Below are positions 22,680 to 45,461 of a stretch of DNA of 64,000 bases, piece after piece. Each line of letters starts with the position of its first letter. The first letter of the stretch is position 1. A model generated the notes under the pieces. The model searched no databases. It was not told where the DNA came from and saw only the letters and a list, made by a program, of their open reading frames with translations. The stretch spans positions 192,001-256,000 of the forward strand of contig CBDFJF010000002.1 in assembly GCA_965248265.1 (NCBI GenBank), written 5' to 3'. This DNA is from Candidatus Latescibacterota bacterium. Lineage in GTDB: Bacteria > Latescibacterota > UBA2968 > UBA8231. A program made the translations under genes and the position numbers.

Positions 22680-23560
22680 CTCCCGACAGATCGTGGACGT
22701 TGCCGCGGGTGGGCAGCAGACGGCCGTCCCTCTGGATCTCGTTGACGTATTTGGTTGACCACGGCGTTGCAGACACGCAGCAGGATGGACAGATCCAGCT
22801 GCGTGAGCAAGGCGCCCTGATCGAAGGCTTCGTGGACCGAGTCGCTTCTTGCGCAGGGAGACGGCGTTGAAGCCGTGATCGATGTCGTGATCGGTAACGA
22901 AGGAGAGGACGATCGGTTTCATCGGGGTGTTGGCGATATGGACCGGTACTTCTTGGGACGCTCCTGGGTGGGACGGCCATCCACACGATCTGACCATAGT
23001 GCAGATGGTGCAGGAGGAGACGATGCAGCCCCTTGCCTTTTGAGGCGTCGGCACTTCTTCAACTGGATCTGGGCTTTGGTCAGGGACTTGCTCATGGGAA
23101 TGGCCTCCCGGTACCGGCGCAAGGCGCCGCTTTTTTGCCGCTTCACCGGAAGACTGCGGCATCAGCTGCTGCTGGTGGAGACGTTCGTTATCCTGGCGGT
23201 CACAGGTCGTGTGGAACTCGAGGTATTCGCGCACCAGGCGGTCGGATTTCTGCGTGATGCGTCGAATCTGTTTCGGCGTGAATCCCTGGCGATGCAGGGA
23301 GGCGATCTGGATGAAGTCGGACAGGTAGCGTCGACCGCTGGTCTCGGAGTGGTTGGTCTGGCGCTCGATGTCGCTGAGGGAATAGTCCTTGAAGTAGAGG
23401 TCGAGGATGATCGTATTGTGAGACTGCCCCGGCCCCATGTCGTGCTTGCTGCCGCGAGTAAGGATGAACAAGCCCTAGCGGCGCAGATGGGGCCACGTCC
23501 CGATTGACCGTGGCCGGGCTCGTCGTCAGCAGCATGGCCAGGGCTTCGTTTTTTCGAATG
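22680..23560 (-). pseudogene. Two tandem decayed DUF1670-like genes
   Basis: RGSKHDMGPGQSH...IERQTNHSETSGRRYLSDF...LVREYL and DQGALLTQLDLSILL...LLPTRGNVHDL occur in several frames. Confidence 0.65.
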
Positions 23561-23696
23561 AGGGGAAATGTGAGGCAAAAGGACTTCCACCAGCGGGACC
23601 TCGGAGAACCATTCGTTGACGTCCGTAAGGCTCTGAAAATCAACGGATTACGCATGTCCGTACTAAGGGAGCGTGGATTGCGGGAAGGCTGCAAGC

Positions 23697-23755
23697 CCTC
23701 CACCATATTGAAAAAGGCGTGGCTCCCTGTTTTTTGGGGGTTGCGCCTTTTCTTG
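23697..23755 (+). other. att-like tmRNA 3' end remnant plus intrinsic terminator (unit 1)
   Basis: CCTCCACCA followed by TATTGAAAAAGGCGTGGCTCCC...GGGGGTTGCGCCTTTTCTTGTT. An IHF consensus AATCAACGGATTA lies at 23638-23650. Confidence 0.7.
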
Positions 23756-23769
23756 TTCTGGGCGCGTGG

Positions 23770-23985
23770 GCGGGCTCTGTGTCTGTGCCGGTCGGCCAGG
23801 CGTTCGGGCCCAGGAGCCCTGCGGGCTCCTGACGCCGCCAGCGCGGAGGGCCGACAGAGTCGGCATCCTGCTTCCACTGTCGGTTCGCGACTTCGTGTCG
23901 CGAACCCCTTCGGGGCAAAAACCCTCCGCGCTGGCGGCTTGCCCTACCGCAATGGCCGTCCGGCACAGACACAGAGACCGCTACG
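23770..23985. repeat. Nested palindromic REPIN/MITE-like element
   Basis: Outer IR CTCTGTGTCTGTGCCGG / CCGGCACAGACACAGAG, inner IR CGCCAGCGCGGAGGG / CCCTCCGCGCTGGCG, and central hairpin GGTTCGCGAC / GTCGCGAACC. Confidence 0.7.
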
Positions 23986-24120
23986 GCACAGAATCACTGT
24001 GGCGAAAACATGGACATACACATCGCCCATTTAGTGGCCCAAGAACGAGCAAAAATCGTCGAAAAGAGGTTTCACAAGACTTATACTGAGTAGAATGAAT
24101 CTCACTCAGGAGACTTTCTG

Positions 24121-27100
24121 ATGAAACGCCTACTACTTGTCGCGTCACTGCTCGCTGCTCTTCCTGCTCAGGCACAGGAGACGGTACCTAAGACGATCGC
24201 CTACATGGGCTACTTGACGGACGCCTCAGGGGACGTTGTCGATGATGGCGACCACACGATCACCTTTCGCCTTTATGAGCAGGCAGCAGGAGGTGTCGTG
24301 GTATGGGAGGCGAGCCGTACGGTGACGACGGGCGACGGGCTCTTCAGTGTGGTGCTGGGCGAGACTGTGTCTCTGGCTGAGGTGCCCTTTGACCGGCCCT
24401 ATTACCTGGGCATCTCGATCGGCGCTGGCGATGAGCTGGCCCCACGCATACCCCTGGTAGCCTCTGCCTACAGCCTTCATGCCAAGAGTGTCGAAGCGGG
24501 TGCCGTGGGTACGGAGCAGCTTGCCGATGACTCGGTGACCGGCGCCAAGGTAGCGGATGCCGCAGTAGGCACGGCGCAGTTAGCCGACGGCTCTGTGACC
24601 GCGGACAAGGTTGCGGATGCAGCGATCACGAGCGACGAGCTGGCAGCTGATGCGGTGACGGCAGTCAAGATCGCCTCGGGTGCCGTGGTCACGAGCGTGA
24701 ACAATGTCACCGGTGGGGTCACGGTCACGGGTGGCGACAACGTATCCGTGGCCACCAATGGCAGCATCGTGACTATTACGGCCACAGGCTCAGAGCTGGC
24801 CGATGATTCCGTGACCTCGGCCAAGATCGCCGCCGACGCGGTAACGGCGACACAAATCGCGGCTGATGCGGTGGGCAATTCCGAACTGGCAGATGTCGCT
24901 GTGTCCACCGCCAAGATCCAGGATGCCTCCGTGACTTCAACGAAACTGGCCACGGACACCGCGGTATTAAGCCTCAACGAGGCCACCAACGACGTAACAC
25001 TGGTCGAGGGTGCCAACATCGACATTGTTCGAGTTGGCCAGAACATCACGATCTCGACCACCGGCGGAAATGAAGTGGGCACCGGTGACATAGCGGACAA
25101 TTCGATCACGAGTGCGAAGATCATCGACAGCGCGATCGCGGAGGCGGATCTGGGTGCCGATGCCGTAACGAGTGCCAAGATCGCCGATGGCACCATCGCC
25201 GCTGCCGATCTGGCGACTAATTCAGTGGGTAGCGACGAAATCACGGCCGGTGCTGTCGGTGGTGCGGAGCTGGGTGCTGACGCCGTCACTTCGGCGAAGA
25301 TTGGTGATGGCACCATACTGGCTGCCGACATCGCCGCTGCTCAGGTAGTCACCAGCGTCAACAACCTGGAAGACGCCGTTACGCTGGCGGCAGGATCTAA
25401 CATCGCCATTACCCCGACCGGCAATACCTTGACTATCGACGCCACGGCTGGGGGTGATATTACTGGGGTAACGGCGGGTACGGGCCTTGCCAATGGCGGC
25501 ACCACCGGTGATGTAACCCTCGATATTGCTGCAGGCGGAGTCGGTACCACGGAACTGGCCGCGGGTGCGGTGACCTCGGCCGAGATTGCCAATGCGACCA
25601 TTGTGGCCGGTGATGTGGCCGCAGGGGCCGTGGTCAAGACCGTGAACAGCCTCACGGATGCCGTGACCTTGGCTGCCGGTACCAACATGGCCATCGCACC
25701 TTCGGGCAACACGCTGACCTTTAACGCTACTGACACGGATACTGATACCGACACCCAGAACACGCTTGACCAGGCATACGACGAGCCCACTGCGGGAGCT
25801 GGCCGTACCATCACAGCGGACAACGGGGCGGTTGATATCGCCGGAGCGGGAGGGTTGACGGTGAATGGCAACGTCGGTATTGGAACGACGAGTCCAACCG
25901 CAAAGGTCCACATTACCAATGGGAGCCTCCTCCTTAACGGTACGACGGGAGCGATTCCGGCCACCGGAGCGGGCACTCGGTTGATGTGGTATCCCGCGAA
26001 GGCAGCGTTCAGAGCTGGATCCGTCACTGGCACACACTGGGATGATGGAAGCGTCGGCCTCAATTCCACCGTCGGCGGTGGCTCGAACAACCAGGCTGGA
26101 GGGGCCGATGCCACGATCGGCGGTGGCAACACCAACAACGTAAGCGGCGCCCAGGCGACCATCGGTGGTGGTATTTCCAACATAGCCAGCGGCAATCAGT
26201 CCACCGTCGGCGGTGGAAACACGAACACGGCGAGCGCCGTAAACGCAGCCGTCGGTGGCGGCGCGAGCAACCAGGCCACTGCCACAAACGCCACTGTTGC
26301 CGGTGGCGGCGCAAACATCGCCAGCGCTATCAACGCCACCGTCGCTGGGGGTAACGTGAATACGGTAAGTGGTGATTACGGCTTCATCGGCAGCGGCAAC
26401 TCGAACAATGTTACCGACCACTTCGGTACGATCGGCGGTGGCTCGAGTAACCAGGCAGGCGACAATGCAGGCACGACAGCCGATGCAACCAATGCAACCG
26501 TTGGCGGCGGAATCTCGAACACCGCGACTGCAACCTACGCGACCGTCGGTGGCGGCTTGACCAATGCTGCCACCCTGAGCGCCGCCACAGTCTCTGGAGG
26601 CGCCAACAACACGGCCGCAGGCAACCAGGGGGTCATCGGCGGTGGTTCCGGCAACGATGTCACCGATGACTACGGCACCATCGGAGGTGGACAGAATAAC
26701 CAGGCCGGCGACAATGCCGGCGTCGTGACCGATCGACAGTATGCGACCGTTGGTGGTGGCGTGTCGAACACCGCGAGTGGAGCCCAGTCGACGATCGGAG
26801 GAGGGACGACGAACACGGCAAACGCCCAGAACGCCACCGTCGGAGGTGGAACGGGCAACACGGCCAGTGGCGTGAACTCTACCCTTGCAGGGGGAGCCTT
26901 AAACAATGCCATAGCCGATAACTCGGCTATTGGTGGTGGCAGTACTAACACGGCAAGCAACACCTACGCGGTTGTCGCCGGTGGATTGTCAAATACAGCC
27001 AGCGGAGACCGTGCAACGGTTGGTGGCGGCGATGCCAATACTGCCACTGGGTTGCGAGCAACAGTAGCCGGAGGGACTTCCAACAGTGCCAGCAATGCCC

Positions 27101-28224
27101 TCGCAAGTGTCAGCGGGGGGCAAGGCAATGTCGCCAGCGGCAACACCTCCACTATTAGCGGAGGCCTCACCAACATTGCCACCGACGATTACTGCGTAGT
27201 CGCAGGTGGCTGGGTCAACCAGGCCGGCGACAATGCGGGGACGACGGGTGATGAGCCTTACGCAACAGTCGGTGGGGGCAGCGGGAACACTGCAGGAGTT
27301 GACTACGCAACCGTCGGAGGCGGCAACGGGAACAGCGTTACCGGCTCCTTCGGTTCTATCAGTGGCGGTCAGACCAACACTGCCAGTGGCACGCATGCTA
27401 CCGTGGGTGGTGGATTCGGAAACACTGCAAGTGCACCCTACAGCATCGTAGGCGGCGGCAACACAAATACAGCAACCCTATCCTACGCGACCGTCGGCGG
27501 CGGCCTGAATAACGACGCTACTCACAACTATGCGACTGTTGCGGGTGGAGGTAACAACGACGCCAGCGAACAGTATTGCGCCATCGGAGGCGGCATCAAC
27601 AACGTTGCTAGCGCGCTCTATTCCACGGTGTCTGGAGGGCACACCAACACCGCCTCTGGCCAATATTCCATGGTGCCTGGAGGGCACATCAACAGCGCCA
27701 CCGCCACGTTCAGTTTCGCAGCTGGCAGGCGAGCGAAGGCCAATCACAGCGGTGCCTTTGTGTGGGGCGACGATACAGATGCAGATATTGCATCCGCTGC
27801 AGCCAATCAGTTCATCGCGCGTTCGGTTGGGGGTGCAACTTTTTACACCAACACAGGCTTGACGACGGGCGTCACCGTTGGTGCGGGTGGTGGTTCGTGG
27901 TCCAGTGTCAGCGACCGAAACGTCAAAGAGAATTTTGCCCCCGTCGACAAGCGCGAGGTGCTCGAAAAGCTGGCGTCAATACCGATTGAGACCTGGAACT
28001 ACAAGAGTCAGGAGGATGCAATCCGACACATGGGTCCGATGGCGCAGGATCTGCATTCGGCGTTCGGCGTTGGTGAGGACGAACGACATATCACCGCAGT
28101 TGACGCCGACGGCATTGCCATGGCGGCAATCCAGGGTCTGTATGAGATCGTGCAACAAAAGGATACCCGGATCGTTGCTCTTGAGGCACGGCTGTATGCT
28201 TTGGAGGCCAAGCTGGCAGAGTGA
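24121..28224 (+). CDS. Secreted tail-fibre/adhesin-like protein 1 with C-terminal peptidase S74 (intramolecular chaperone) domain
   Basis: Signal peptide; VPKTIAYMGYLTD domain; ADDSVTSAKIA repeats; long GGxxNxAxGxxATV beta-helix repeats; SDRNVKENF...HMGPMAQD; coiled coil. Confidence 0.88.
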   Translation: MKRLLLVASLLAALPAQAQETVPKTIAYMGYLTDASGDVVDDGDHTITFRLYEQAAGGVVVWEASRTVTTGDGLFSVVLGETVSLAEVPFDRPYYLGISIGAGDELAPRIPLVASAYSLHAKSVEAGAVGTEQLADDSVTGAKVADAAVGTAQLADGSVTADKVADAAITSDELAADAVTAVKIASGAVVTSVNNVTGGVTVTGGDNVSVATNGSIVTITATGSELADDSVTSAKIAADAVTATQIAADAVGNSELADVAVSTAKIQDASVTSTKLATDTAVLSLNEATNDVTLVEGANIDIVRVGQNITISTTGGNEVGTGDIADNSITSAKIIDSAIAEADLGADAVTSAKIADGTIAAADLATNSVGSDEITAGAVGGAELGADAVTSAKIGDGTILAADIAAAQVVTSVNNLEDAVTLAAGSNIAITPTGNTLTIDATAGGDITGVTAGTGLANGGTTGDVTLDIAAGGVGTTELAAGAVTSAEIANATIVAGDVAAGAVVKTVNSLTDAVTLAAGTNMAIAPSGNTLTFNATDTDTDTDTQNTLDQAYDEPTAGAGRTITADNGAVDIAGAGGLTVNGNVGIGTTSPTAKVHITNGSLLLNGTTGAIPATGAGTRLMWYPAKAAFRAGSVTGTHWDDGSVGLNSTVGGGSNNQAGGADATIGGGNTNNVSGAQATIGGGISNIASGNQSTVGGGNTNTASAVNAAVGGGASNQATATNATVAGGGANIASAINATVAGGNVNTVSGDYGFIGSGNSNNVTDHFGTIGGGSSNQAGDNAGTTADATNATVGGGISNTATATYATVGGGLTNAATLSAATVSGGANNTAAGNQGVIGGGSGNDVTDDYGTIGGGQNNQAGDNAGVVTDRQYATVGGGVSNTASGAQSTIGGGTTNTANAQNATVGGGTGNTASGVNSTLAGGALNNAIADNSAIGGGSTNTASNTYAVVAGGLSNTASGDRATVGGGDANTATGLRATVAGGTSNSASNALASVSGGQGNVASGNTSTISGGLTNIATDDYCVVAGGWVNQAGDNAGTTGDEPYATVGGGSGNTAGVDYATVGGGNGNSVTGSFGSISGGQTNTASGTHATVGGGFGNTASAPYSIVGGGNTNTATLSYATVGGGLNNDATHNYATVAGGGNNDASEQYCAIGGGINNVASALYSTVSGGHTNTASGQYSMVPGGHINSATATFSFAAGRRAKANHSGAFVWGDDTDADIASAAANQFIARSVGGATFYTNTGLTTGVTVGAGGGSWSSVSDRNVKENFAPVDKREVLEKLASIPIETWNYKSQEDAIRHMGPMAQDLHSAFGVGEDERHITAVDADGIAMAAIQGLYEIVQQKDTRIVALEARLYALEAKLAE

Positions 28225-28497: not shown

Positions 28498-28764
28498 CTA
28501 CCCTTGCCGTACGAGAGCCGCAATCCGGTCCTTCACCTTTTCGGGCAGGCTGTCCCAAGCAGAGACGACGACCGCCAGATCGTCCGGCAGATTCTGTTGC
28601 ACGTATGTTGCACACTTTGGGTGCTCAGATATGTCCTGATTCTGTATTGAAAGTGCGTTCTTCTGCTTGCCACCTCTACTGGCCGATTGTTCTAACGCAC
28701 TGATCTGTTTGGTTTTCGCACTGTTTTGTGAAGGTTCTGTTGTTTCAGAAACTACTTCGGTTTG
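28498..28764 (-). mobile_element. Integrative-element end remnant
   Basis: ORF tail LPDDLAVVVSAWDSLPEKVKDRIAALV, a motif commonly seen at integrative-element ends. Arm-type direct repeat TGTTGCAC x2 at 28595-28613. Abuts the att core. Confidence 0.6.
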
Positions 28765-28842
28765 GGGTTCAACTCCCGCCGCCTCCACCATATTGAAAAG
28801 GGCGTGACTCTCTGAAATAGGGGGTTGCGCCTTTTTGTTCTG
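28765..28842 (+). other. tmRNA 3' end copy (att core) plus terminator (unit 2)
   Basis: GGGTTCAACTCCCGCCGCCTCCACCA (T-loop, acceptor stem and ACCA typical of ssrA) without the rest of the gene, followed by the same hairpin and T tract. Confidence 0.8.
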
Positions 28843-28985
28843 GGCCCGCTCTACGGGCAGATGATCGTGTCGAACATGGGCATACACATCGCCCATTTAG
28901 TGGCCCAAGAACGGCAAAAATCGTCGGAAAGAGGTTTCACAGGAGTTATACTGAGTAGAATGAATCTCACTCAGGAGACTTTCTG

Positions 28986-31900
28986 ATGAAACGCCTATTG
29001 CTACTCGCGTCATTATGGCTGGCTGCCCTTCCGACCGTACAGGCACAGGACACGGTACCTAAGACGATCGCTTACATGGGCTACCTGACCGACTCCTCTG
29101 GGGACGTTGTCGATGATGGCGACCACACGATCACCTTTCGCCTTTATGAGCAGGCAGCAGGGGGTGTCGTGGTATGGGAGGCGAGCCGTACGGTGACGAC
29201 GGGCGACGGGCTCTTCAGTGTGGTGCTGGGCGAGACTGTGTCTCTTGTTGAGGTGTCGTTTGACCGCCCCTACTACCTGGGTATCTCGATCGGGGCAGGT
29301 GATGAACTGGCTCCGCGCATACCCCTGGTAGCCTCTGCCTACAGCCTTCATGCCAAGAGTGTCGAAGCGGGTGCCGTGGGTACGGAGCAGCTTGCCGATG
29401 ACTCGGTGACCGGCGCCAAGGTCGCGGATGCTGCGGTAGGCACGGCGCAGTTAGCCGACGGCTCTGTGACCACGGACAAGGTTGCGGATGCAGCGATCAC
29501 GAGCGCCGAGCTGGCGGCTGACGCGGTGACGGCAGTCAAGATTGCTTCGGGTGCGGTGGTCACGAGCGTGAACAATGTCACCGATGGGGTCACGGTCACG
29601 GGTGGCGACAACGTATCCGTGGCCACCAATGGCAGCATCGTGACTATTACGGCCACAGGCTCAGAGCTGGCCGATGATTCCGTGACCTCGGCCAAGATCG
29701 CCGCCGACGCGGTAACGGCGGCACAAATCGCTGCTGATGCGGTGGGTAGTTCTGAATTGGCAGATGACGCCGTGTCCACTGCGACGATACAGGACGCGGC
29801 GGTGACGGCTGCCAAGGTAGCCGCTGGGACGGCCGTGTTGAGCCTGAACGAAGTCACCGACGCTATTACCCTGGTTGAAGGTGCCAACATCGAGATTATT
29901 GAAGTTGGACAGAACATCACGATTGGCACTACCGGTGGGAACGAAGTCGGTACCGGCGACATAGCGGATAACTCGATCACAAGTGCCAAGATCATTGACA
30001 GCGCCATCGCGGAGGCCGATCTGGCAACCGATGCGGTGACGAGCGCGAAGATCGTCGATGGGACTATCGTGGCCGCTGACATCGCCGGTGGAGCCGTGGT
30101 CAGCAGCGTTAACACCCTTACAGATGCGGTCACATTGGCGGCGGGTACGAACATCGCCATCAATCCCGTGGGAAATACTCTGACTATCGATGCCACTGCT
30201 GGGGGCGACATTACCGGTGTAACTGCGGGTACTGGCCTTACTGGCGGGGGCACGACAGGCGATGTCACCGTTGATATCGATGCAGGCGGGGTGGGTACCA
30301 CCGAATTGGCGGCCGACGCGGTTACCAGCGGGAAAATCGCCGACGCAACCATTGTCGCCGCTGACATCGCCACAGGCGCTGTAGCCACCGATGAAATCCT
30401 GGACGCCACCATCGCCACAGCCGATCTGGCCAATGACGCGGTGACGAGTGCGAAGATCGCGGCCTCGACCATTATGGCCGCAGACATTGCCGCAGGTGCC
30501 GTGGTCAAGACGGTGAACGGGCTCACCGACGCCGTAGTCCTGGACGCGGGGACCAACATCACAATCACACCGGCTGGCAATACGCTGACTATTGACGCTG
30601 GCAGCGGTATGGAGAATACCCTTGACGAAGCCTACAACGAGGGTGGAGCGGGAGCCGGCCGGATCATCACGGCGGACAATGGTGCCGTCGATATCCAGGG
30701 CACAGACGGCCTGACCGTCAGCGGCAATGTCGGCATCGGCCAGACGAGCCCGACGGGGCGCCTCGAAGTCAAAGGCACGGGCAATACTTCGGGCACTTAC
30801 GCGTTCAATGCCAGCAATAGCGACGGCAACACTATCCTCCACATGCGCGACGATCAGAGAGTGGCGATCGGCTACACAGCACCATTAAATCGCTTTTCGT
30901 TGCTGGCATCGGCAGACAACACCATGGACTTCGCGTTGATCAAGCACGACGCCTCCGCTCAAATCGTCCGCATCGGCGAGCAGAGCGGCGACGGTGTCAT
31001 CGGCATCTACGATTCGGGGCTCAACTCCTTCAACCATTGGCTGGAGGGCAACGACGGCTCGCACTCGAGTCTGGCAGTGCTGACAAGCTCGCGGTTGGGC
31101 ATCGGAGTCGCTTCACCGGCGTCCAAGTTAGAGGTCGGAGGCGGCGCGGTGCTTTTCGACGGGACGGCGGGGACCACGCCGACCTCGGGAGCCGGAACGC
31201 GACTGATGTGGATTCCAGCCAAAGCCGCGTTCAGAGCGGGCGCGGTGACTGGCACTCAATGGGATGATGCCAGCATCGGCCTCAACACGACGGTCGCCGG
31301 AGGGAAGGACAACGTCGCCAGCAGCAGCTACGCAACTGTTGGCGGTGGCCAAGACAACCTCGCACAGACCAACACACACGCAACAGTTGGAGGTGGATTC
31401 AACAACAACGCAAGTGGGCAATACGGGATCGTGGCGGGGGGCCGAAACAACACTGCCAGCGGCTCGGACGCGGTTGTTGTCGGCGGCTCCTCCAATACGG
31501 CAAGTGCCGATCTCTCTGTGGTTGGAGGCGGCGCCACCAACACAGCAAGCGGAATCAAGGCGACTGTCGGCGGCGGACAAACAAACACCGTCACCGATGA
31601 CTACAGCGTCGTGGGCGGAGGCCAGAACAATCAGGCAGGCAATAATGCAGGCACGACAGCCGATAGGCAACATGCAACGGTCGCTGGCGGCGTCAGCAAT
31701 ACAGCAAGCGGCGTCGAGTCCACTGTTTCAGGCGGCACGACGAACGTCGCGAGTGGACCTCAGTCAACCGTTGGCGGCGGCGACAGCAACACGTCAAGCT
31801 CTACCTACACCACGGTTGCCGGTGGGCTGACGAATACTGCGGTCCTGACAGGTGCCACAGTTGGCGGCGGCAGCCTCAACGACGCCACGAACAACTGGGC

Positions 31901-34999: not shown

Positions 35000-35165
35000 A
35001 AATGCCCTGCTCGTAAGGAACTTCCGCTGCTCCTTCTCGCTTCTCTGCAAGAAACACGATCCGCATTGCCTACGAGCGGCTGAACCATCCAACCGTTAGC
35101 TGATCGATAGCATCTACTTCAGTCTGAGATAGACGCACTGTAACCACCACTTCCTGTTTCGCCAT
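35000..35165 (-). pseudogene. Decayed ribbon-helix-helix (CopG-like) regulator
   Basis: MAKQEVVVTVRLSQTEVDAIDQLTVGWFSRS*AMRIV. Confidence 0.5.
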
Positions 35166-35284
35166 AGGATAAACTCGCGTGTCTGGTAGCCCAAGCCCAA
35201 AAAGGGGATGGCATCTACTCCCGACAGAACAAACGCCGTATGATGAGTTCCAGGTGCGGCAATTACTCACCAACGGACAGCTTA

Positions 35285-35435
35285 TGGGGGTAGAAGTGGG
35301 GGTATTTCCAATAGACATTTCATAAAATGATCTGCGCCGCAATGGGTTACGGCGGACATGCGGTGGACGCCGCCTCCACCATATTGAAAAGGGCGCAACT
35401 CTCTGACTTTGGGGGTTGCGCCTTTTCTTGTTCTG
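35285..35435 (+). other. Arm-type repeats, tmRNA 3' att core and terminator (unit 3)
   Basis: TGGGGGTA x2 (35285-35304), CGCCGCCTCCACCA (35368-35381), then the same terminator. Confidence 0.78.
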
Positions 35436-35605
35436 GGTCGCATGGTGGGCACTGTGTCAGTGCCCGTTCTACGGTACAGAATCATTGTGGCTAAAGCATG
35501 GGAATACAAACTCCCAATAACGGCCAAGAACGAGTAAAAATCGTCGGAAAGAGGTTTGACAAGACTTATACTGAGTAGAATGAATCCCACTCAGGAGACT
35601 TTCTG

Positions 35606-38600
35606 ATGAAACGGCTGTTACTACTCGCATCATTGTGGCTCGCTGCCCTTTCGACCGTACAGGCCCAGGAGACGGTACCTAAGACGATCGCCTATATGGG
35701 CTACCTAACGGACGCCTCAGGGGACGTTGTCGATGATGGCGACCACACGATCACCTTTCGCCTTTATGAGCAGGCAGCAGGGGGTGTCGTGGTATGGGAG
35801 ACGAGCCGTACGGTGACGACGGGCGACGGGCTCTTCAGTGTGGTGCTGGGCGAGATCGCGTCCCTGGAAGCCGTGTCGTTTGACCGGCCCTATTACCTGG
35901 GCATTTCGATCGGCGCTGGCGATGAGCTGGCCCCACGCATACCCCTGGTAGCCTCTGCCTACAGCCTTCATGCCAAGAGTGTCGAAGCGGGTGCCGTGGG
36001 TACGGAGCAGCTTGCCGATGACTCGGTGACCGGCGCCAAGGTAGCGGATGCCGCAGTAGGCACGGCGCAGTTAGCCGACGGCTCTGTGACCGCGGACAAG
36101 GTTGCGGATGCAGCGATCACGAGCGACGAGCTGGCGGCTGACGCGGTGACGGCAGTCAAGATCGCCTCGGGTGCCGTGGTCACGAGCGTGAACAATGTCA
36201 CCGGTGGGGTCACGGTCACGGGTGGCGACAACGTATCCGTGGCCACCAATGGCAGCATCGTGACTATTACGGCCACAGGCTCAGAGCTGGCCGATGATTC
36301 CGTGACTTCGGCCAAGATCGCCGCCGACGCGGTAACGGCGGCACAAATCGCGGCTGATGCGGTGGGCAATTCCGAACTGGCAGATGTCGCTGTGTCCACC
36401 GCCAAGCTCCAGGATGCCTCCGTGACGGCAGCGAAGCTGGCCACGGACACAGCGGTGCTGAGCCTGAACGAGGCCACCAACGACGTAACACTGGTCGAGG
36501 GTGCCAACATCGACATCGTTCGCGTGGGACAGAACATCACGATCTCGACGACGGGTGGTAATGAGGTCGGTACGGGCGACATCGCGGATAACTCGATCAC
36601 GAGTGCGAAGATCATCGACAGCGCGATCGCGGAGGCGGATCTGGGTGCCGATGCCGTAACGAGTGCCAAGATCGCCGATGGCACCATCGCCGCTGCAGAC
36701 ATAGCGGGTGGCGCTGTCGGCAGTGCGGAACTGGCCGCTGACGCCGTCACTTCGGCGAAGATTGGTGATGGCACCATACTGGCTGCCGACATCGCCGCTG
36801 CTCAGGTAGTCACCAGCGTCAACAGCCTGGAAGACGCCGTCACTCTGGCAGCGGGGTCCAACATTACCATCACCCCAGCCGGTAACACGCTTACCATCGA
36901 CGCCACGGCTGGGGGTGACATTACCGGCGTAACGGCGGGTACGGGCCTTGCCAATGGCGGCACCACCGGTGATGTAACCCTCGATATCGCTGCAGGCGGA
37001 GTCGGTACCACGGAACTGGCCGCAACTGCGGTCACGACAGCCAAGATCGCCGCTGATGCGGTCACCTCGGCTGAGATTGCCAATGCGACGATAGTGGCCG
37101 GTGATGTGGCCGCAGGGGCCGTGGTCAAGACGGTGAACAGCCTCACGGACGCAGTGACCCTGGCTGCGGGTACCAACATGGCGATTACTCCGTCAGGCAA
37201 CACCCTGACCTTTGCCGCTACTGACACAGATACCGACACCCAGAACACCCTCGACGGAGCTTACGACGAAGGTGGAGCAGGAGTTGGCCGTACCATCACG
37301 GCAGACAATGGTGCGGTTGATATCGCCGGGACCGATGGACTGCAGGTCACAAACGGCAGCGTGCTCTTTACTGGCGCCAGCGGCACTACTCCGACCAGCG
37401 GTGCAGGCACACGCATGATGTGGATACCGGCGAAGAAAGCCTTCCGGGCAGGCATCATTGCCGGAACGCAATGGGATGACGCCAACATCGGCGATGAGTC
37501 CACGGTCACTGGTGGAGGTGACAACATCGCCTCGGGACAGCGGTCTGTTGTCAGCGGCGGGGTTACGAACACGGCGAGCGGTATTACATCCACCGTCGGC
37601 GGCGGCCAACTCAATACGGCCACAGCGCTAAATGCGACGGTTGCGGGTGGAACCTTCAACGATGCGACCTTCGGCGCCGCCACCGTCGGAGGTGGCTCCA
37701 GCAATACCGCCTCTACAGTTGGGTCCACGGTCTCAGGAGGCAGCGGCAATACCGCAAATGGGAACACCGCCACCGTCGGCGGAGGCAATGCCAACACCGC
37801 GAGCGGTCAAGACGCCGTTGTAGCCGGCGGTAGCAACAATGTGGCCAGTGGAGATCGCTCCATGATCCCAGGCGGCCTTCAAAACACCGCCGCGGGGCTC
37901 TACAGCTTCGCCGGAGGTCGGCGCGCCAAAGCCAACCACACAGGGGCCTTTGTCTGGGCTGATCAGACGGACGCCGACTTCGCATCGACGGCGGTTGATC
38001 AATTCCTGATTCGCGCGTCTGGTGGAGTCGGCATCGGCACGACTACTCCGGGTGCCCGATTAGAGAGCAATGATGCGGCGGGTCTTCCCGCTACCTCTGG
38101 ATCTACTCAGACCGGATCCATGATTCGGGCGCGTAGCGGAAACGGAGTGGTAGATATTGGGATCAATACCAATGGTGATGGCTGGATTCAAAACTCCGAC
38201 GCCACCAATCTCGGTATCAACTACAACCTTCTGCTTAACCCAAACGGCGGCAACGTCGGCATCGGCACGACGAGTCCGAGCGTTCCGTTACATGTCGATC
38301 TCCCGGGAGCTGGTCATGAGGTTCGTATAGACAAGGATGTTGACTGGGTCGGCAGTGGTTGGACACATCTTCGTCTTAGCGACGCTACGACCCCGAACAA
38401 AATGCTCCGTATTGGGTATAGCGCTGTAGGTGATTTTGCTGTGCTACAGAGCCAAGAAGCTGGTGTAGGTTTCAAACCATTGACTCTGAATCCGAATGGC
38501 GGCGATGTCGGAATCGGCACGACGAGTCCGAGCGGTAAATTTCACGTCAACCTGGCCACAAATGAAACGGCACTGCTGGGCACTTCGTCAGCATCCGGGA

Positions 38601-39625
38601 TATGGGGCGTGAACGGAGGACTACTGAGCCAGTCAAGTATTTTCCAGATCGTCAGCACGGCTGCGAACCCGATGATTTTCTACACCGGGGGGACCTACAA
38701 CACTATGACAGCTGGCACAGAGAGGATGATAATAGAGAGCAGCGGCAACGTCGGCATCGGCACGACGACTCCAGGTTCTATCCTGGAGGTGAAACCGGCG
38801 GCAAATGGCGGCGTTCACGTCGTGAATTCCGGTCTGGCAAATGGGGAATACACGAGGCTCGCACTGGGAAAAAGCCCTGGAAATAATGAAGCCTTTTTCC
38901 TAATCGGAACCTACCATGCTACCGATGCAAGTCGAAAGCTCACGATCGGAACCAGTGAAAGTTGGGGAGGCACCGAGAATCTGGTTTTGACGGGTGAGGG
39001 CAAAGTCGGGATCGGCGCGACTAGCCCCACGGAAAAGCTGACAGTCGCAGGTCATGTCGCGCCCGCTACAGATGGCGTCTACACAAGCGGCACCTCCGGG
39101 CTCAAGTGGAGCGCTGTCTGGGCAACGAATGGCACCATACAGACCTCGGACCGCCGTCTGAAAGAGAATATCGAGGACAGTCCCTACGGGCTTGATGAAG
39201 TGATGGATATGCGTCCGGTCTCCTACACGTGGTTAGATCGAGCCGAGCAAGGTCGCAAGATCGGGTTGATCGCTCAGGAAATGCAGCCAATAGTCTCCGA
39301 AGTCGTGCAAGTGGGTGACGATGAGCGCAACACGCTCGGACTGAACTACTCCGATATAGTCCCTGTTCTGATCAAGGCCATCCAGGAGCAGCAGGAGATC
39401 ATAAAGCTACAGCGCGAGCAATTCGAGAGACACGAAGCGAACGAGCTTGCGAATGTGGAGCTGAGTCAGGTGAAGGAGGAGCTGTCGGAGCTGCGATCGG
39501 AGAAGGAGAAGCTGGCTCTGCACAATGAAGAGTTGCAAATGCAGTTGGAGGCGCTAACGGCTGCAGTGCGGAGGCTGGAAGCGATGGCGGCTGTGGAAGC
39601 GGAAATAGAGCTGGCGGCGAGATAA
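35606..39625 (+). CDS. Secreted tail-fibre/adhesin-like protein 3 with peptidase S74 domain
   Basis: Same N-terminus; five G(N/G/D/K)VGIG modules; TIQTSDRRLKENI...IGLIAQE; coiled coil. Confidence 0.88.
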   Translation: MKRLLLLASLWLAALSTVQAQETVPKTIAYMGYLTDASGDVVDDGDHTITFRLYEQAAGGVVVWETSRTVTTGDGLFSVVLGEIASLEAVSFDRPYYLGISIGAGDELAPRIPLVASAYSLHAKSVEAGAVGTEQLADDSVTGAKVADAAVGTAQLADGSVTADKVADAAITSDELAADAVTAVKIASGAVVTSVNNVTGGVTVTGGDNVSVATNGSIVTITATGSELADDSVTSAKIAADAVTAAQIAADAVGNSELADVAVSTAKLQDASVTAAKLATDTAVLSLNEATNDVTLVEGANIDIVRVGQNITISTTGGNEVGTGDIADNSITSAKIIDSAIAEADLGADAVTSAKIADGTIAAADIAGGAVGSAELAADAVTSAKIGDGTILAADIAAAQVVTSVNSLEDAVTLAAGSNITITPAGNTLTIDATAGGDITGVTAGTGLANGGTTGDVTLDIAAGGVGTTELAATAVTTAKIAADAVTSAEIANATIVAGDVAAGAVVKTVNSLTDAVTLAAGTNMAITPSGNTLTFAATDTDTDTQNTLDGAYDEGGAGVGRTITADNGAVDIAGTDGLQVTNGSVLFTGASGTTPTSGAGTRMMWIPAKKAFRAGIIAGTQWDDANIGDESTVTGGGDNIASGQRSVVSGGVTNTASGITSTVGGGQLNTATALNATVAGGTFNDATFGAATVGGGSSNTASTVGSTVSGGSGNTANGNTATVGGGNANTASGQDAVVAGGSNNVASGDRSMIPGGLQNTAAGLYSFAGGRRAKANHTGAFVWADQTDADFASTAVDQFLIRASGGVGIGTTTPGARLESNDAAGLPATSGSTQTGSMIRARSGNGVVDIGINTNGDGWIQNSDATNLGINYNLLLNPNGGNVGIGTTSPSVPLHVDLPGAGHEVRIDKDVDWVGSGWTHLRLSDATTPNKMLRIGYSAVGDFAVLQSQEAGVGFKPLTLNPNGGDVGIGTTSPSGKFHVNLATNETALLGTSSASGIWGVNGGLLSQSSIFQIVSTAANPMIFYTGGTYNTMTAGTERMIIESSGNVGIGTTTPGSILEVKPAANGGVHVVNSGLANGEYTRLALGKSPGNNEAFFLIGTYHATDASRKLTIGTSESWGGTENLVLTGEGKVGIGATSPTEKLTVAGHVAPATDGVYTSGTSGLKWSAVWATNGTIQTSDRRLKENIEDSPYGLDEVMDMRPVSYTWLDRAEQGRKIGLIAQEMQPIVSEVVQVGDDERNTLGLNYSDIVPVLIKAIQEQQEIIKLQREQFERHEANELANVELSQVKEELSELRSEKEKLALHNEELQMQLEALTAAVRRLEAMAAVEAEIELAAR

Positions 39626-39897
39626 GGGTTTCGAGGAACAAGGACTGCGGCGCTCTCGTCCTGCTATCGCAACTCCTTGACCTACGGTTTGGTGCCCCGC
39701 CTCATGGGAGGTGAACCCGATTCGCCAATCGGCTGATGGGAGGGCATATATACTCCCCCATATTTTAACCCAGAAATCTCCACCCTGGCCCTGTTGGTAG
39801 CCCTTCCGAATCTCCGTAGCCTATTGAACAATCCCGGCGGTCACAAAGACCAGCCAGGAGGGAATCTAACTGTGCTGGAGGGTGAAAGGATCAATAG

Positions 39898-40470
39898 ATG
39901 AAAGCGGCACTACTGTTATTGCTGACATTAGGGTTGAGCAGTACCGTTCATGCTCAGCCCGGCCAATGGCAGTTCACGATAAACAACAATTGGGGTTATA
40001 CGGTTGTCGATGTCCCCGCCGCCGTGGAGATACCCGAGATTTCCGGCGGCGAGGGATTATCTGATTGGAATCAGTTCAACTATCGAGGTTTGGCGCAGTT
40101 CCTATACCGCAGCTCGGAGACCGTCTCTTTCGGTCCCGAGATCGGGGTAAGCAGGCTCTACTTCTGGGAGGAGCGCTATGTCCCCATCGGCCTGAGTCCA
40201 CGCTACCGATGGGAAACGGTGTGGACTTGGTTTGCGGGAGGCTTGGTGCGGCTCGACTTAGGGGCCGCCTACTACGTCATGGCAGGCGCCAGCATCCATA
40301 CCTTCTTCAACGGGACCGGTACGACGGTCGGCATTCCCCTGGGGGTCGGCTATACTCTCGTCGTTACCGACCGCTTTAGCATCCCTCTCGAATTTCGAGT
40401 CGATATCGTCTTTGGCGATGCCGTTCCCATCGGTCTGGGCGGCGGCGTTGGCCTGCAGTTCAACCTGTGA
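39898..40470 (+). CDS. Small outer-membrane beta-barrel protein
   Basis: Signal peptide, amphipathic strands and C-terminal GVGLQFNL. Confidence 0.7.
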   Translation: MKAALLLLLTLGLSSTVHAQPGQWQFTINNNWGYTVVDVPAAVEIPEISGGEGLSDWNQFNYRGLAQFLYRSSETVSFGPEIGVSRLYFWEERYVPIGLSPRYRWETVWTWFAGGLVRLDLGAAYYVMAGASIHTFFNGTGTTVGIPLGVGYTLVVTDRFSIPLEFRVDIVFGDAVPIGLGGGVGLQFNL

Positions 40471-40677
40471 GCACCCAGACCCTCATCCCGACGCGGCTAC
40501 GTCCGAACAAACCGCATTTGAAACGCCTGCTTTTTGAGACTAGATCGGTTTGAGGTTCAACTCCCGCAAATGGCCCCATTCCTTGCGCGAAAGACAGAAT
40601 CGATCTGTGCCTCCGCGTTGCAGAAGGCGGAGGTCGATTCTATGTTCACATTGGGAATGCTGAAAGGACAAGAGCAA

Positions 40678-40899
40678 ATGCAATCCGTGGATTTGTCGCG
40701 TGTAGTGCACGTCGACCCTGAGATCTTGGGCGGGACGCCAGTCTTCGTCGGCACTCGGGTGCCAATCAGAAGTCTTTTCGACCATCTTGAGGGTGGAGAT
40801 TCCATAGAGGACTTCCTGCGCGGTTTCCCAAGCGTGAAACGCGAGCAGGTGATCGGAATCCTGGAGGAATCTCGCCACCGCGTTCTCGCCCCGTCCTGA
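40678..40899 (+). CDS. DUF433 antitoxin
   Basis: DPEILGGTPVFVGTRVPI...GDSIEDFLRGFPSV. Confidence 0.9.
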   Translation: MQSVDLSRVVHVDPEILGGTPVFVGTRVPIRSLFDHLEGGDSIEDFLRGFPSVKREQVIGILEESRHRVLAPS

Positions 40900-40908
40900 T
40901 TTGAGATC

Positions 40909-41220
40909 TTGCTCGACGAAAATCTGGATTGGCGACTTCAAGACAGCCTACCAGACCACCAAGTCGACTCCGTCGCTCGTCTTGGTTGGGCGGGTATCAA
41001 GAACGGAGAACTGTTGGAGCGAGCTCAAGATCGATTCGACGTTCTGATCACGATGGACAGCAACTTGCCCTGGCAGCAAAATCTCGAACGTTTCGACCTC
41101 TCAGTGATCGCTCTACGAGCTACATCGAACCGATTGTCGGATACTCGGCCACTCATGGAGCAGGTCACAGTTATTCTCCCCACACTCAAGGCTGGAAGGC
41201 TTGTTGTCGTGGCGACGTAG
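40909..41220 (+). CDS. DUF5615 PIN-like toxin (start uncertain)
   Basis: LLDENL...GWAGIKNGELL...FDVLITMDSNLPWQQNL. Confidence 0.88.
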   Translation: MLDENLDWRLQDSLPDHQVDSVARLGWAGIKNGELLERAQDRFDVLITMDSNLPWQQNLERFDLSVIALRATSNRLSDTRPLMEQVTVILPTLKAGRLVVVAT

Positions 41221-41237
41221 CTACGTGACTATGTGAG

Positions 41238-41300
41238 TCCCGCCGGCTTATTGAAAAGCGCAACTCTCTGATTTCGGGGGTTGCGCTTCTTTTTGTTCTG
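41238..41300 (+). other. Degenerate att core plus terminator (unit 4)
   Basis: TCCCGCCG..TATTGAAAAGCGCAACTCTC...GGGGGTTGCGCTTCTTTTTGTT. The 5' half of the core lies at 40546-40567. Confidence 0.7.
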
Positions 41301-41460
41301 AGTCGCGTGGGCCGGCACAGACACAGAACCCGCTACGGTACCGATGATTTACGAGCCTGCTTGCAGACACCCTATAGCCAAGAACGAGCAAAAATCATCG
41401 AAAAGAGGTTTCACAAGACTTATACTGAGTAGAATGAATCTCACTCAGGAGACTTTGTTG

Positions 41461-44400
41461 ATGAAACGCCTATTACTACTCGCGTCACTGTGGCTCGCTG
41501 CCCTTCCGACCGTACAGGCACAGGGGACGGTACCCAAGACGATCGCCTACATGGGGTTCCTGACGGACTCGTCAGGGGAGGTTGTCGGTGATGGTGACCA
41601 CGCGATCACCTTTCGCCTCTATGAGCAGGCAGTTGGGGGTGTCGCGGTATGGGAGACGACCCGCACGCTGACGACGAGCAGCGGGCAATTCAGCGTGGTG
41701 CTGGGCGAGATCGCGTCCCTGGAAGCGGTGCCGTTTGACCGACCCTATCTCCTTGGCATCTCGATTGGAGGTGGTGATGAACTGGCCCCGCGCATTGCCC
41801 TGGTGGCCGCGCCCTACAGCCTGCATGCCAAGTCCGTCGAAGATGGCTCTGTGCTGGCGGTGGATGTGGCCGATGGTCAGGTAGTGAAGAGCCTCAACGG
41901 CGCGCAGGACGAAGTCACCCTGGTAGAGGGTGCCAACATCACGATTGAGCAGGCCGGTCAGAATATCACCATCTCCGCCAGTGGGGGGAGTGAGGTTGGC
42001 GTGGGTGATCTGGCGGATAATTCGGTGACTGGCGCCAAGATCGTCGACGCCTCCATTACGGCCAGTGATCTAGCGAATGATGCTGTTACCGCAGCCAAGA
42101 TTGCATCCGGAGCGGCTGTGACGAGCGTGAATGCAGCAACCGATGGTGTCACCATTGAAGGTGGCGGCGACGTGACTGTGGCCACCGTGGGTAACACAGT
42201 GACGATCTCGGCTACGGGTGGGGATCTGGCGGATGATGCGGTGACCTCGGCGAAGATCGCTGATGGTACGGTCGCGACAGTAGATCTGGCCGACGACGCG
42301 GTGACCGCTACGCAGATTGCCGCTGACGCTGTAGCTACTGCCGAAATCCAGGATGCAGCAGTGACGGGTGCCAAGCTGGCGACGGGCAGTGCGGTGTTGA
42401 GCCTCAACGATGCCACCGACGCTGTAAACCTGGTACCGGGAGCCAACGTCACCATCGATCGCGCTGGTCCTAACATTACCATCGGCACCACAGGGGGTAA
42501 TGAGGTAGGCACCGGCGACATAGCGGACAATTCAATAACGAGCGCTAAGATCCTGGACAGTGCCGTTTCCGAGGCCGACCTGGCCACCGATGCGGTAACA
42601 AGTGCCAAGATCGTCGATGGCACGATCGTGGCTGCAGACCTAGCCGCTGGCGCTGTGACGACGACACAGATCGCTGACGCCACGATCACGGCGACCGATC
42701 TGGCGACTGATTCGGTGGACGCCGACGAAATCGCGGTTGATGCTGTAGGCAGCGCGGAGCTGGGTGCTAACGCCGTCACTTCGGCAGAGATTGGTGATGG
42801 CACCATACTGGCTGCCGACATAGCCGTCGGTCAGGTAGTCACCAGCGTCAACAACCTGGAAGACGCCATTACCCTGGCGGCAGGATCCAATATCAACATC
42901 ACCCCGGCCGGTAACACGCTACCATCGACGCCACAGCTGGGGGTGATATTACGGGGGTAACGGCGGGCACGGGCCTTGCCAATGGCGGCACCACCGGTGA
43001 TGTAACCCTCGATATCGCTGCGGGCGGAGTTGGCTCCACGGAGCTGGCCGCGGGTGCGGTCACGACGGCCAAGATCGCCGCTAATGCGGTCACCTCGGCC
43101 GAGATTGCCAATGCTACCATCGCGGCCGGTGATGTGGCCGCAGGGGCCGTGGTCTTGACGGTGAACAGCCTCACCGATGCCGTGACCCTGGATGCTGGTA
43201 CCAACATGGCCATCGCACCTTCGGGCAACACCCTGACCTTTAATGCCACCGACACAGATACGGACACTCAGAACACCCTCGACCAGGCCTACGACGAAGG
43301 TGGAGCGGGAGTTGGCCGTACCATCACGGCTGACAATGGAGCCGTCGATATCGCGGGAGCTGGGGGACTGACCGTGAATGGTAGTGTCGGCATCGGCACG
43401 ACGAGCCCATCTCATCCATTGCATGTGGTGGGAGGTGACGCATACATACCCTATCCGGGTGCCGGTTCGACGGATGGATTCAGGCTGGCACTCGGAAACT
43501 ACGATGGATACATCTGGCGGAATCAGACAGGGGTATTCACAAACGCCATGGTTCTGTCTACCAACTATGCCTTGACTGATGGTGGAGTCGACACAGTACC
43601 GAACGTTGGAGCCGCGACGACGGCTATCTCGCTGGACGATGGGGCGATCAATTTCATGACAGGCGCCATCAATACAGCGCCTTCGACGAGAATGACAGTT
43701 GAAATCGACGGTGATATCGGCATCGGCACGGTGACACCGGCAGCCAACTTAGAGGTAAACGGGGATGTCAGTAGCAATGAGATAGGTACTTTGGTCGCCG
43801 GATCTGCCTCCACGGGCTTCGGGACGGATTACCCATTTCTGGCACTGATAAACGATAACACAACGGCCAACAACTATGCTAGAATCGATTGGCGGGATGC
43901 AGACAATGTAGTCAGCGTCGCAAGTGTCGCCGGCGTGTTCACAGACCACACGAACGACTACGGTGATCTGGCTTTCATAACCCGGAGTGCCGGCGGCTTT
44001 TCCGAGAAGATGCGGATCCTCGGCAACGGCAACGTCGGCATCGGCACGACACCGCCAGGCACTCTCCTGCATCTCGACAAAGGTGGCCACGGGGAGGCAA
44101 TACGCTTAACCAACAGCGGCTTCGGGGACAACAGTATCAGCACCTTCGGAGATGGTTCGGGCCCCGGCCTCTTCCTCGGCGCCAATGCCTATCTCGATGC
44201 TGCCACTGCCGTGCAGCGGCACAACGCGGGCCAGCCGGCCTGGGACCTATCGTTGAACGCAAGCGGTGGCGATAGATTCGCCGTCAGCCGAACCAATGCT
44301 GGCGGCACTCGAACTGAGCATCTGCATATCAATAGCAGTGGCAACGTCGGCATCGGTACGTCAACTCCAGGCGCGCTCCTTCACCTGTCCAAGGGGCACG

Positions 44401-45461
44401 GGGAGGCAATACGTATGACCAACAGCGGCTTCGGAGACAACGCCATCAGTAACTTCGGTGACGGTTCGGGTGTCGGGATGTTCCTCGGCGCCAATGTCTA
44501 TCTGGATGCTGGGACGGCCAGACAGAGATACAACGCCGGTCAGGCAGGATGGGATGTCACGCTAAATGCCAGTGGCGATTATTTCCGCATCAGCCGGACA
44601 GATGCTGGTGGAACTACGACAGATCATTTCCGTATCGATAACGCTGGCCAATTCGGAATCGGCACAAACACCCCATCTCATCAATTACATGTAGTAGGAG
44701 GTGACGTATACCTCCCCTATCCGGGTGCCGGTTCGACGGATGGCTTCAGAATGAATCTGGGAAACTTCGATGGTTACATCTGGAGAAACCAAACCGGCGC
44801 GTATTCGAACAGGCTGGTCATATCAACCAACTATGAACTCAACGACGCGGGAGCCGACCTGATACCTAACGCGGGAGCATCGACGTCGGCAATTGCGCTA
44901 TCAGGCATAATCGAGTTTCAGACAGGTGCTATCAATACGGCGCCCTCAACCAGGATGACGATTGCCACTAGCGGGGAAATCGGCGTCGGCCGGGCACCAA
45001 CAGCCAATGCCTTCGAAGTCGAGGGCGCTGCCTCTAAAACAGCAGCCGGTGACTGGCTCGCCAACTCCGACCGCCGGTTGAAAACCGATGTCCAGGAAAT
45101 TGATAACGCCCTGGCCACGGTTCGCAAACTCCGACCGGTTAAATTTCGCTACAGCGAAGAGTTTCAGGAAGGTCACCCTTCCGTCGGCAACCGCGTTTAC
45201 TACAACTTCATAGCCCAGGAGTATCAGGAGATCTTTCCCGAAAGCGTCCAGGATGACGGCACTGGATATCTCCAGGTAGAAACGTATAGCGTTCGGCCTC
45301 ATCTGGTAGGCGCTGTGCAAGAACTCGATGCGCAGATACAGTCCATGACTCTGGAGAACGAGGCTCTAAAGAGGCAGAATGATGAGCTGAAGGCACAAAT
45401 GGCCTCTCTATCATCGACCATACAACGTCTCGAGAGAATGGTCAGTACAACCAACCGATAG
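41461..45461 (+). pseudogene. Secreted tail-fibre/adhesin-like protein 4 with S74 domain and a -1 frameshift at ~42920
   Basis: AACACGCTACCATCG versus AACACGCTTACCATCG in paralog 3. The downstream frame continues to ANSDRRLKTDV...FIAQEY. Could be a sequencing error. Confidence 0.85.

Follow-up and report, generated by a model that had tools for sequence, protein, structure and literature searches.

Fibre genes behind repeated copies of the tmRNA gene 3' end: a possible accretion array in a Candidatus Latescibacterota genome

We analysed a 64,000-nt stretch of a Candidatus Latescibacterota genome (assembly GCA_965248265.1, contig CBDFJF010000002.1, positions 192,001 to 256,000), hereafter the window, in which four long genes for predicted secreted fibres each lie behind a copy of the 3' end of ssrA, the gene of the transfer-messenger RNA (tmRNA). 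Coordinates without a prefix are window positions, and the host genome is called G000, with contigs C1 and C2. Our preferred explanation, held with slightly more confidence than doubt, is that the locus grew by accretion at the tmRNA gene and is composed of three integrase-less fibre modules bounded by attachment (att) sites and a terminal copy. A first-pass annotation, made from the sequence alone, had reported the four repeated units, and all of them were recovered in place. Its description of the locus as an att-bounded cassette array also remains the best one; the ssrA-derived segments are here called cores.

From left to right, the locus presents the intact ssrA, a 44-kb mosaic region, the three modules and a fourth copy that abuts ordinary genes. 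Each module is laid out as terminator, leader, fibre gene, shared 3' tail and flank, and a right-end remnant of a tyrosine-integrase ssrA island. Modules 1 to 3 are bounded by cores and measure 5.1, 6.6 and 5.2 kb from core to core, respectively; cores 2 and 4 have an att type that belongs, in relatives, to islands with a convergent tyrosine integrase.

Host ssrA and its displaced copies

The intact gene, which had been expected upstream on the plus strand, was located there at C2:171541-171893 (209 bits). It is the sole tmRNA gene of the genome, its tag peptide is ANDNSYALAA, and it lies to the left of the array, 20.1 kb from the start of the window and 43.8 kb from core 1. ARAGORN and Rfam returned zero RNA genes over the whole window; the ssrA fragments are too short to score. 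The earlier statement that the window holds neither a full ssrA nor an intact integrase needs one correction, since a 181-aa tyrosine-integrase fragment is present at 14694-15236.

Cores 1 to 3 are copies of the ssrA 3' end, in the orientation of the intact gene and all downstream of it. On the plus strand, core 1 (23697..23705) corresponds to the last 9 nt of host ssrA, CCTCCACCA, core 2 (28765..28790) to the last 26 nt and core 3 (35368..35381) to the last 14 nt, so that the proposed match with the host gene is exact in the three cases. Each junction loses the match to ssrA at a point of its own, and no left flank is related to another, as independent att junctions would produce. The 26-mer of core 2 occurs at two places in the 7.3-Mb genome, ssrA and unit 2, and the 14-mer of core 3 at five, three of them at the array locus. 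The two 14-mer copies found elsewhere have no terminator behind them and look like chance matches. The 9 nt of core 1 are not significant by themselves; they are contiguous with a homologous terminator block. The 44-kb mosaic island region begins at ssrA and has core 1 as its right boundary.

Core 4 is split. Its left half (40546..40567, plus strand) is a diverged copy of the ssrA T-arm, of the same attP type as at core 2 and the same diverged copy that is found in the relative G021; its right half (41238-41248, plus strand) is degenerate and has lost CCACCA. Between both halves there is a 670-nt insertion (40568..41237, plus strand) that encodes DUF433 and DUF5615 proteins, a toxin-antitoxin-like pair. 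The hexamer TCCCGC is present at both ends of this insertion inside the fourth ssrA fragment, and may be a target duplication produced by a tiny mobile module.

Behind each core the sequence continues with TATTGAAAA and then with a hairpin of 13-16 bp and a T run. The hairpin was scored as a terminator by the scan in units 1, 3 and 4, and that of unit 2 is the same one, since the changes in its stem stay paired through wobble pairs. Terminator and leader together occupy, on the plus strand, 23706..24120 in unit 1 (hairpin 23712-23751), 28791..28985 in unit 2 and 35382..35605 in unit 3 (hairpin 35388-35426), and in unit 4 they lie within 41238..41460 (terminator 41256-41288). Terminators of the type GCGCAAC...GTTGCGC are located immediately 3' of ssrA in approximately 10 of 25 family relatives, and the block behind each core is an ssrA-type terminator. 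It is no mark of native DNA, because chromosomes and integrating islands carry it alike. The terminator immediately 3' of host ssrA resembles that behind the ssrA of G046.

The last 90 nt of the leader present 87-94.5% identity between units, unit 4 included. This part is conserved better than the synonymous sites of the genes (synonymous divergence, dS, of 0.4-1.3 for unit 4), and for this reason the leader is probably functional. Within it (24035-24120 and the equivalents in the other units) there is a TATACT box and a 6-bp hairpin, CTGAGT...ACTCAG, just 5' of the ribosome-binding site; both are kept even in unit 4, which makes them a candidate regulatory element of the fibre genes.

Verification of the assembly

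An array of this kind could also appear if strain alleles of one fibre gene had been chained into a false array, and stretches of up to 99% identity between units could indeed mislead an assembler. We consider this very improbable, since contigs assembled independently from three public runs cross junctions 2, 3 and 4 with zero differences. At junction 2, the Logan contig sequence of run X2 (28266-28910) extends from the end of gene 1 through the spacer and core 2 into leader 2. At junction 3 (34270-35737) the cover reaches from the spacer through core 3 and leader 3 to nucleotide 131 of gene 3, and at junction 4 (40021-41427) from the spacer through the split core 4 with its insertion into leader 4 (in both cases runs X2, X3 and X5). 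The possibility of a chimera, which had been raised as what could overturn the array, is thus answered at junctions 2 to 4; the core 1 junction is not among the contig pieces listed. Of the words sampled from 27500-36500, 94-95% were present in public runs that derive from a single sample. That single sample may be the genome's own source, and the result is an assembly check rather than evidence from an independent isolate.

Island ends beside the cores

To the left of the cores, the DNA had been described as resembling the ends of integrative elements. When seven query segments were compared by tblastx with 73 relatives' loci, the spacer of core 2 matched 7 loci. The match falls on an intact 97-aa open reading frame (ORF) at 28498..28791 (minus strand), situated at the island right end (P-arm). 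Its ATG is created by the junction of CCA with T, and it reads antisense through core 2. The relatives show 33-41% identity over 29-83 residues, and all have in common a C-terminal motif of about 27 residues. In G013, G024, G021, G006 and G052, the match immediately adjoins a displaced ssrA fragment and lies on the side where it lies here. Moreover, in the relatives with a core-2-type flank, the core has on its other side a terminator of the kind described above and then a convergent tyrosine integrase. At core 3, the junction formed by GGTGGA and the 14-mer has a counterpart in G021, at the third of its ssrA fragments, where 8 of the 9 nt to the left of the 14-mer are identical; in addition, the PhyH oxygenase gene of the neighbouring spacer has a relative inside the G021 ssrA island (tblastx). 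For the flank of core 1, the same set of loci yielded nothing comparable to the island ends of cores 2 and 3. Consequently, the resemblance to element ends holds by homology to relatives' islands for cores 2 and 3, and core 1 offers nothing informative.

The 97-aa ORF had no family in Pfam or NCBIfam, and a word-based protein search returned itself alone. Relatives of it are located at ssrA-island right ends of several genera, at the loci L200 (approximately 19430-19736), L202, L192, L171 and L203. In these islands, the small gene takes its ATG or TTG from the CCA end of the tmRNA gene plus the flank, and its first residues are antisense to the tmRNA 3' end. In G021, the frame of the small right-end gene continues from the neighbouring integrase across the core. 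Genes of this type may encode a recombination directionality or control factor.

Fragments of ssrA in tandem occur commonly across the family. The tmRNA gene was located in 28 of the 31 genomes searched, and a convergent tyrosine integrase abuts the terminator in 3 of 21 relatives' ssrA loci whose downstream ORFs were scanned. Of 76 family genomes, 67 contain the 14-mer, and G021, G024 and G052 have several copies of it on the same strand of one contig. These copies are tandem ssrA fragments, three within 27 kb in G021 and two each in G024 and G052, 1.4-1.7 kb apart; the core-to-core units of the last two genomes seemingly contain little beyond the integrase. In L045, L052, L055, L164, L202 and L203, the convergent tyrosine integrase ORF is open through the terminator hairpin to the tmRNA end, and in the ssrA islands of relatives the complement of the terminator T run encodes a conserved integrase tail (..VGAEQE..).

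The fibre genes

The four genes are all on the plus strand, measure 4.0-4.5 kb and encode a signal peptide and a conserved N-domain. Gene 1 (24121..28224; 1367 aa) presents, after both elements, a UspA1-head-like repeat region and an S74 chaperone. Gene 2 (28986..33518; 1510 aa) has the N-terminal part of the others and a non-S74 tip, gene 3 (35606..39625; 1339 aa) has an S74 tip, and gene 4 (41461..45461), also with an S74 tip, is the most divergent copy. The four genes are thus where the first-pass annotation had placed them, with the correction that gene 4 is frameshifted by a 1-nt deletion: it is broken at 42919/42920, where one T is lost relative to units 1 and 3. An extra T behind 42919, seen at minority contig depth in runs X2 and X3, may be the result of cross-mapping from unit 3, which has this T.

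After the N-domain, the proteins continue with 15-residue repeat segments, the UspA1-head-like region, GNVGIGT-type repeats and the tip. Similarity to the trimeric UspA1 head (PDB 3pr7) was found with E values of 2.6e-16 and 2.9e-20, and similarity of the GNVGIGT-type repeats to bd2133 (8ond) is weak (E 1.4e-3). All of the genes but gene 2 gave a match to Peptidase_S74 (E 4e-12 to 2e-15). A signal peptide followed by the N-domain, of approximately 130 aa, is present in all seven paralogues of the genome, three of which lie on contig C1, with a mean column identity of 81%. Among the three full-length proteins scanned, gene 3 alone gave a hit to the NCBIfam model Bdello_MAT_N, at 20.7 bits and thus below the cut-off of 60. 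An AlphaFold (AF2) model of the N-domain is beta-rich, with a predicted local distance difference test (pLDDT) score of 74, and had zero PDB matches at E<=0.001. By their domain order, the genes would encode a secreted fibre built like the mosaic adhesive trimer (MAT) fibres, presumably trimeric and exposed at the cell surface.

The N-domain has few close relatives: a search of 5.8 billion proteins gave 7 proteins, 4 of them the host's own, and an Atlas look-up gave unnamed clusters only. The N-terminal part (330 aa) matched 9 of 41 genomes, with 44% identity for the best non-self match, and none of them showed a different cassette number. A metagenome scan produced matches in the generic repeat part only (residues ~96-330, 32-49% identity) and no other array. 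In the genome contigs collection, the N-domain was found at 14 loci from many phyla (36-48% identity), and the exact leader pattern had 0 matches.

Units 1 to 3 have more in common than had been noticed. The unit formed by core, terminator, leader and gene was borne out, and it is incomplete, because a 3' tail and flank are likewise common to these three units. Between units 1 and 3, identity is 91-99% in the first 1.7 kb, about 45% (unalignable) in the following 2.4 kb and 91% in the final 230 nt. The pairs 1-2 and 2-3 present 90-98% identity in their first 0.8 kb, and unit 4 is the outlier. The tips are unrelated between copies and the 5' part is conserved over approximately 1.7 kb. At the other end, units 1 to 3 share a coiled-coil tail and 130-220 nt beyond the stop, with 3' flanks whose end points all fall within about 20 nt of a single position. 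In unit 2, approximately 105 nt are deleted from the shared tail and flank. Gene 1 stops early, and a remnant of the shared C-terminal tail and 3' flank continues to ~28450; in gene 3 the shared 3' flank reaches ~39745.

Because the N-domains of genes 1 to 3 present dS values of 0.20-0.29 with dN/dS of 0.07-0.17, these copies are old and under purifying selection, and not fresh duplicates. Furthermore, patches of near-identity (97-99%) between units indicate gene conversion between the copies.

The common ends of the units admit another explanation, namely the local tandem duplication of one unit formed by ssrA fragment, terminator and fibre gene, after an island had displaced the ssrA end. 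It would have been followed by divergence, by exchange of tips with the paralogues on the other contig and by separate island hits that later decayed. The shared 5' 1.7 kb, the shared tail and flank with their nearly coincident end points, the patches of gene conversion inside the array, and the three C1 paralogues with the same tail all agree with it, and a foreign origin of the alleles has so far found no support. Nevertheless, we regard it as unlikely. A duplicated junction should be identical in each copy, and matches of 9, 26 and 14 nt with unrelated island-end flanks were observed. Three insertions would be required, each accompanied by a traceless deletion of the island left end and of the second core. 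The 2.4-kb variable parts are unalignable and not merely diverged, and dS values of 0.2-0.3 speak against a recent event.

Origin of the array

The standard model of integration at tRNA-like genes treats any core-to-core stretch as inserted DNA. The three such stretches of this locus, each with one fibre allele, an island right end and no integrase, follow the pattern known as cis-mobilizable elements and accretion. We infer the order of insertion, the circular intermediates and the enzyme, as well as the expression and function. Under the accretion explanation, circles composed of an island right end, an ssrA core, a terminator, a fibre allele and its flank might arise when such DNA is excised, aberrantly or from core to core, in a different cell or lineage. 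These circles would then be inserted one after another, with a single crossover each, in such a way that the newest module is the nearest to ssrA. The crossover might be site-specific in the core, if the integrase of an island acted in trans, or it might be homologous and fall in the conserved 1.7-kb 5' part. Since then, gene conversion would have shuffled the conserved part among the copies. With terminator insulation and its own leader for each gene, the array could store, and perhaps co-express, alternative adhesive tips.

The first-pass annotation had gone further and proposed that the fibre gene is the native neighbour of ssrA. This part was not supported, and no fibre relative was found beside a tmRNA gene: there was none at the 14 distant fibre loci (0 of 14, with up to 10 kb of flank), and in the four family genomes where both were located, fibre and ssrA were on different contigs in all four. 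Upstream, the TamA-ssrA synteny is kept in 4 of 5 genomes. To the right of gene 4 there is a convergent M24 peptidase gene (45503-46591) and no further core; this peptidase gene lies far from ssrA in G021 and G008, and therefore the native right flank is undefinable.

The same observations would suit dedicated mobile fibre cassettes, in which terminator, leader and fibre gene form the left (P') end of small integrase-less elements that use the integrases of ssrA islands, as integron cassettes use IntI; unit 4 would then be the oldest, with its right end lost. The standard model makes the core-to-core stretches inserted elements, and all three begin identically; relatives' islands carry a terminator of the same type on the left, the fibre relatives located elsewhere do not adjoin tmRNA genes, and mini-elements of 1.4-1.7 kb between cores do exist in G024 and G052. 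Against this stand at least two att types among the right ends for one left end, the lack of any such cassette in the other genomes or metagenomes searched, and unit 4, which abuts ordinary genes with no att remnant. We consequently judge these cassettes to be as doubtful an origin as the tandem duplication.

Some observations weigh against the accretion of modules that we prefer. The same left end with different right-end types in all three modules would be odd for one family of elements and needs an extra capture step, and unit 4 has no core on its right. No relative with another number or order of cassettes was found in the 41 genomes, the metagenomes or the genome contigs. The link of the PhyH gene to the G021 island is weakened by equally similar PhyH genes far from ssrA in G002, G018 and G021, and by the orientation of the gene relative to the core, which differs between the spacer and that island. 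No cognate integrase was found either: a tblastn search of C2:165-262 kb with three family integrases gave no match. Finally, no circle or core-to-core junction was seen in the Logan contigs, which show such joints poorly, so that the att-to-att junctions or circles that had been anticipated in reads did not appear in the contigs of the public runs.

With respect to the present state of the array, there is no integrase ORF in 23706-45461, and the serine recombinase and the tyrosine-integrase fragments are confined to the 44-kb region adjoining ssrA. The genome's only close homologue (60-64% identity) of the family ssrA-island integrase, at C1:1923156-1923994, adjoins a tRNA gene and has an internal gap, with the middle of the protein gone. 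The array is probably inert or fixed now, because there is no intact cognate integrase in the genome, core 4 is destroyed, core 1 is reduced to 9 nt and gene 4 is frameshifted. A working store of alleles in the manner of an integron is less likely still than the cassettes just discussed. In it, borrowed tyrosine integrases of ssrA islands would cut and re-insert fibre cassettes core to core, populations would shuffle the tips, the site would double as the tmRNA terminator and the 97-aa gene, with its start codon made by the att junction, would serve as directionality or control factor.

Some further signals in the public runs were set aside. Run X5 has no cover over 26068-33400, with both sides covered; a variant array might lie behind this, although a gap in contig cover is no proof. 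Its weak joint 28793->35362 has 20 letters on one side and is out of register with the cores. In run X1, from seawater, short spacer pieces and a joint like a relative's ssrA end followed by its terminator were too little to be of use. Run X5 also carries variants of its own at 33902, 34008 and 34196.

Relation to known systems

Tandem islands at tmRNA genes are known. The nearest described case is that of Dehalococcoides (McMurdie et al. 2011, PMC3146451), where, according to the text available, tandem ssrA islands include 15 without an integration module. Those integrase-less islands carry rdhA paralogues, and they are discussed there as cis-mobilizable and built by accretion. The locus studied here resembles them in its integrase-less tandem ssrA islands with paralogues of one gene family and in the large serine recombinase beside ssrA, here a protein of 531 aa accompanied by DUF2924. 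However, the Dehalococcoides islands have a uniform 20-bp repeat, whereas the matches here measure 9, 14 and 26 nt and their junctions are of two types or more. No Dehalococcoides island has a duplicate within its strain, and here every module starts with the same terminator, leader and gene. In addition, the island ends by cores 2 and 4 are those of tyrosine-integrase islands. As far as the available parts of that paper allow the comparison, the array is a same-gene variant of the tandem ssrA islands. A similar situation is that of ICESt1/ICESt3 of Streptococcus thermophilus, in which recombinase-less, att-flanked DNA lies in tandem with related elements at one target gene; mobilisation is shown there (Pavlovic et al. 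2004, as cited in PMC3146451), unlike here, where the genome has no intact cognate integrase.

The present locus has an intact target gene with same-strand displaced 3' copies, as expected of tandem tmRNA islands, and an island end shared with other genomes; an integrase near one end of each element is absent. Williams, in 'Traffic at the tmRNA gene' of 2003, reportedly described how the target is regenerated by island sequence and how a displaced 3' fragment marks the far end. Our locus is like the Islander-type islands of tRNA and tmRNA genes in the regeneration of the target gene by the island and in the displaced 3' fragment at the far end, to the extent covered by the source text (PMC4383910). 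It differs from them in that the three inner modules have no integrase and one gene each. In outline, there is also a likeness to class 1-type integrons, with single-gene cassettes, a recombination site for each and one attachment point. Unlike integrons, the array has no IntI, attI, attC fold or common promoter, and it has a terminator before each gene and a leader for each; it is not an integron member.

As for the proteins, the signal peptide, the putative counterpart of the beta-rich N-domain of ~130 aa, the mosaic fibre and the S74 or other tip recall the MAT fibres of Bdellovibrio, as these are presented in the accessible text of Caulton et al. (2024, PMC10769870), and so does the presence of many paralogues per genome, seven in our case. 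The same text reports that its own N-domain was likewise without a PDB match, and an att-bounded array of MAT genes does not appear in it. The sequence similarity of the N-domain here to the Bdellovibrio model remains weak, at the 20.7 bits mentioned above against a cut-off of 60. In the portions of the Dehalococcoides-island and Bdellovibrio-MAT literature consulted (PMC3146451, PMC10769870), an array whose modules all carry one surface-fibre gene is not described. If att recombination did gather the modules, this would be a route for collecting alternative receptor-binding tips at one safe site, where each tip arrives with a ready-made terminator and promoter, and it would link the traffic of ssrA islands to the diversification of MAT-like adhesins. 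The four cores with known flanks, together with the candidate integrases of related genera, constitute a test bed for this idea.

Spacers and the region between ssrA and the array

The spacer between units 2 and 3 (33561..35367) is unique and ends with GGTGGA abutting core 3. It contains a second 97-aa ORF (33761-34054, minus strand) and the PhyH gene (34061-34777, minus strand). A comparison of its DNA with the 76 family genomes gave nothing but homologues of the PhyH gene, which has little weight as evidence of an island. The spacer between units 3 and 4 (39746..40545), also unique, contains a 190-aa ORF (39898-40470, plus strand) with no family match.

In the leader of unit 1, and in no other unit, there is a small repeated element of ~170 nt (23792-23959) between 17-nt inverted arms (23775-23791 and 23960-23976). 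Partial copies with 82-90% identity are found at C2:3000787 and C2:641227, and by its structure the element looks like an insertion of the miniature inverted-repeat transposable element (MITE) or repetitive extragenic palindromic (REP) type.

The 44 kb between ssrA and core 1 (C2:171894-215696, that is, locus L009 plus window positions 1-23696) consist of decayed mobile DNA. At the ssrA-proximal end lie the gene of the DUF2924 protein and that of the 531-aa large serine recombinase, which is CcrB/XisF-like. The region also harbors a LexA-like repressor gene, ISL3, IS1595, IS66 and IS3 transposases, phage tail and contractile-injection tube genes, and two tyrosine-integrase fragments.

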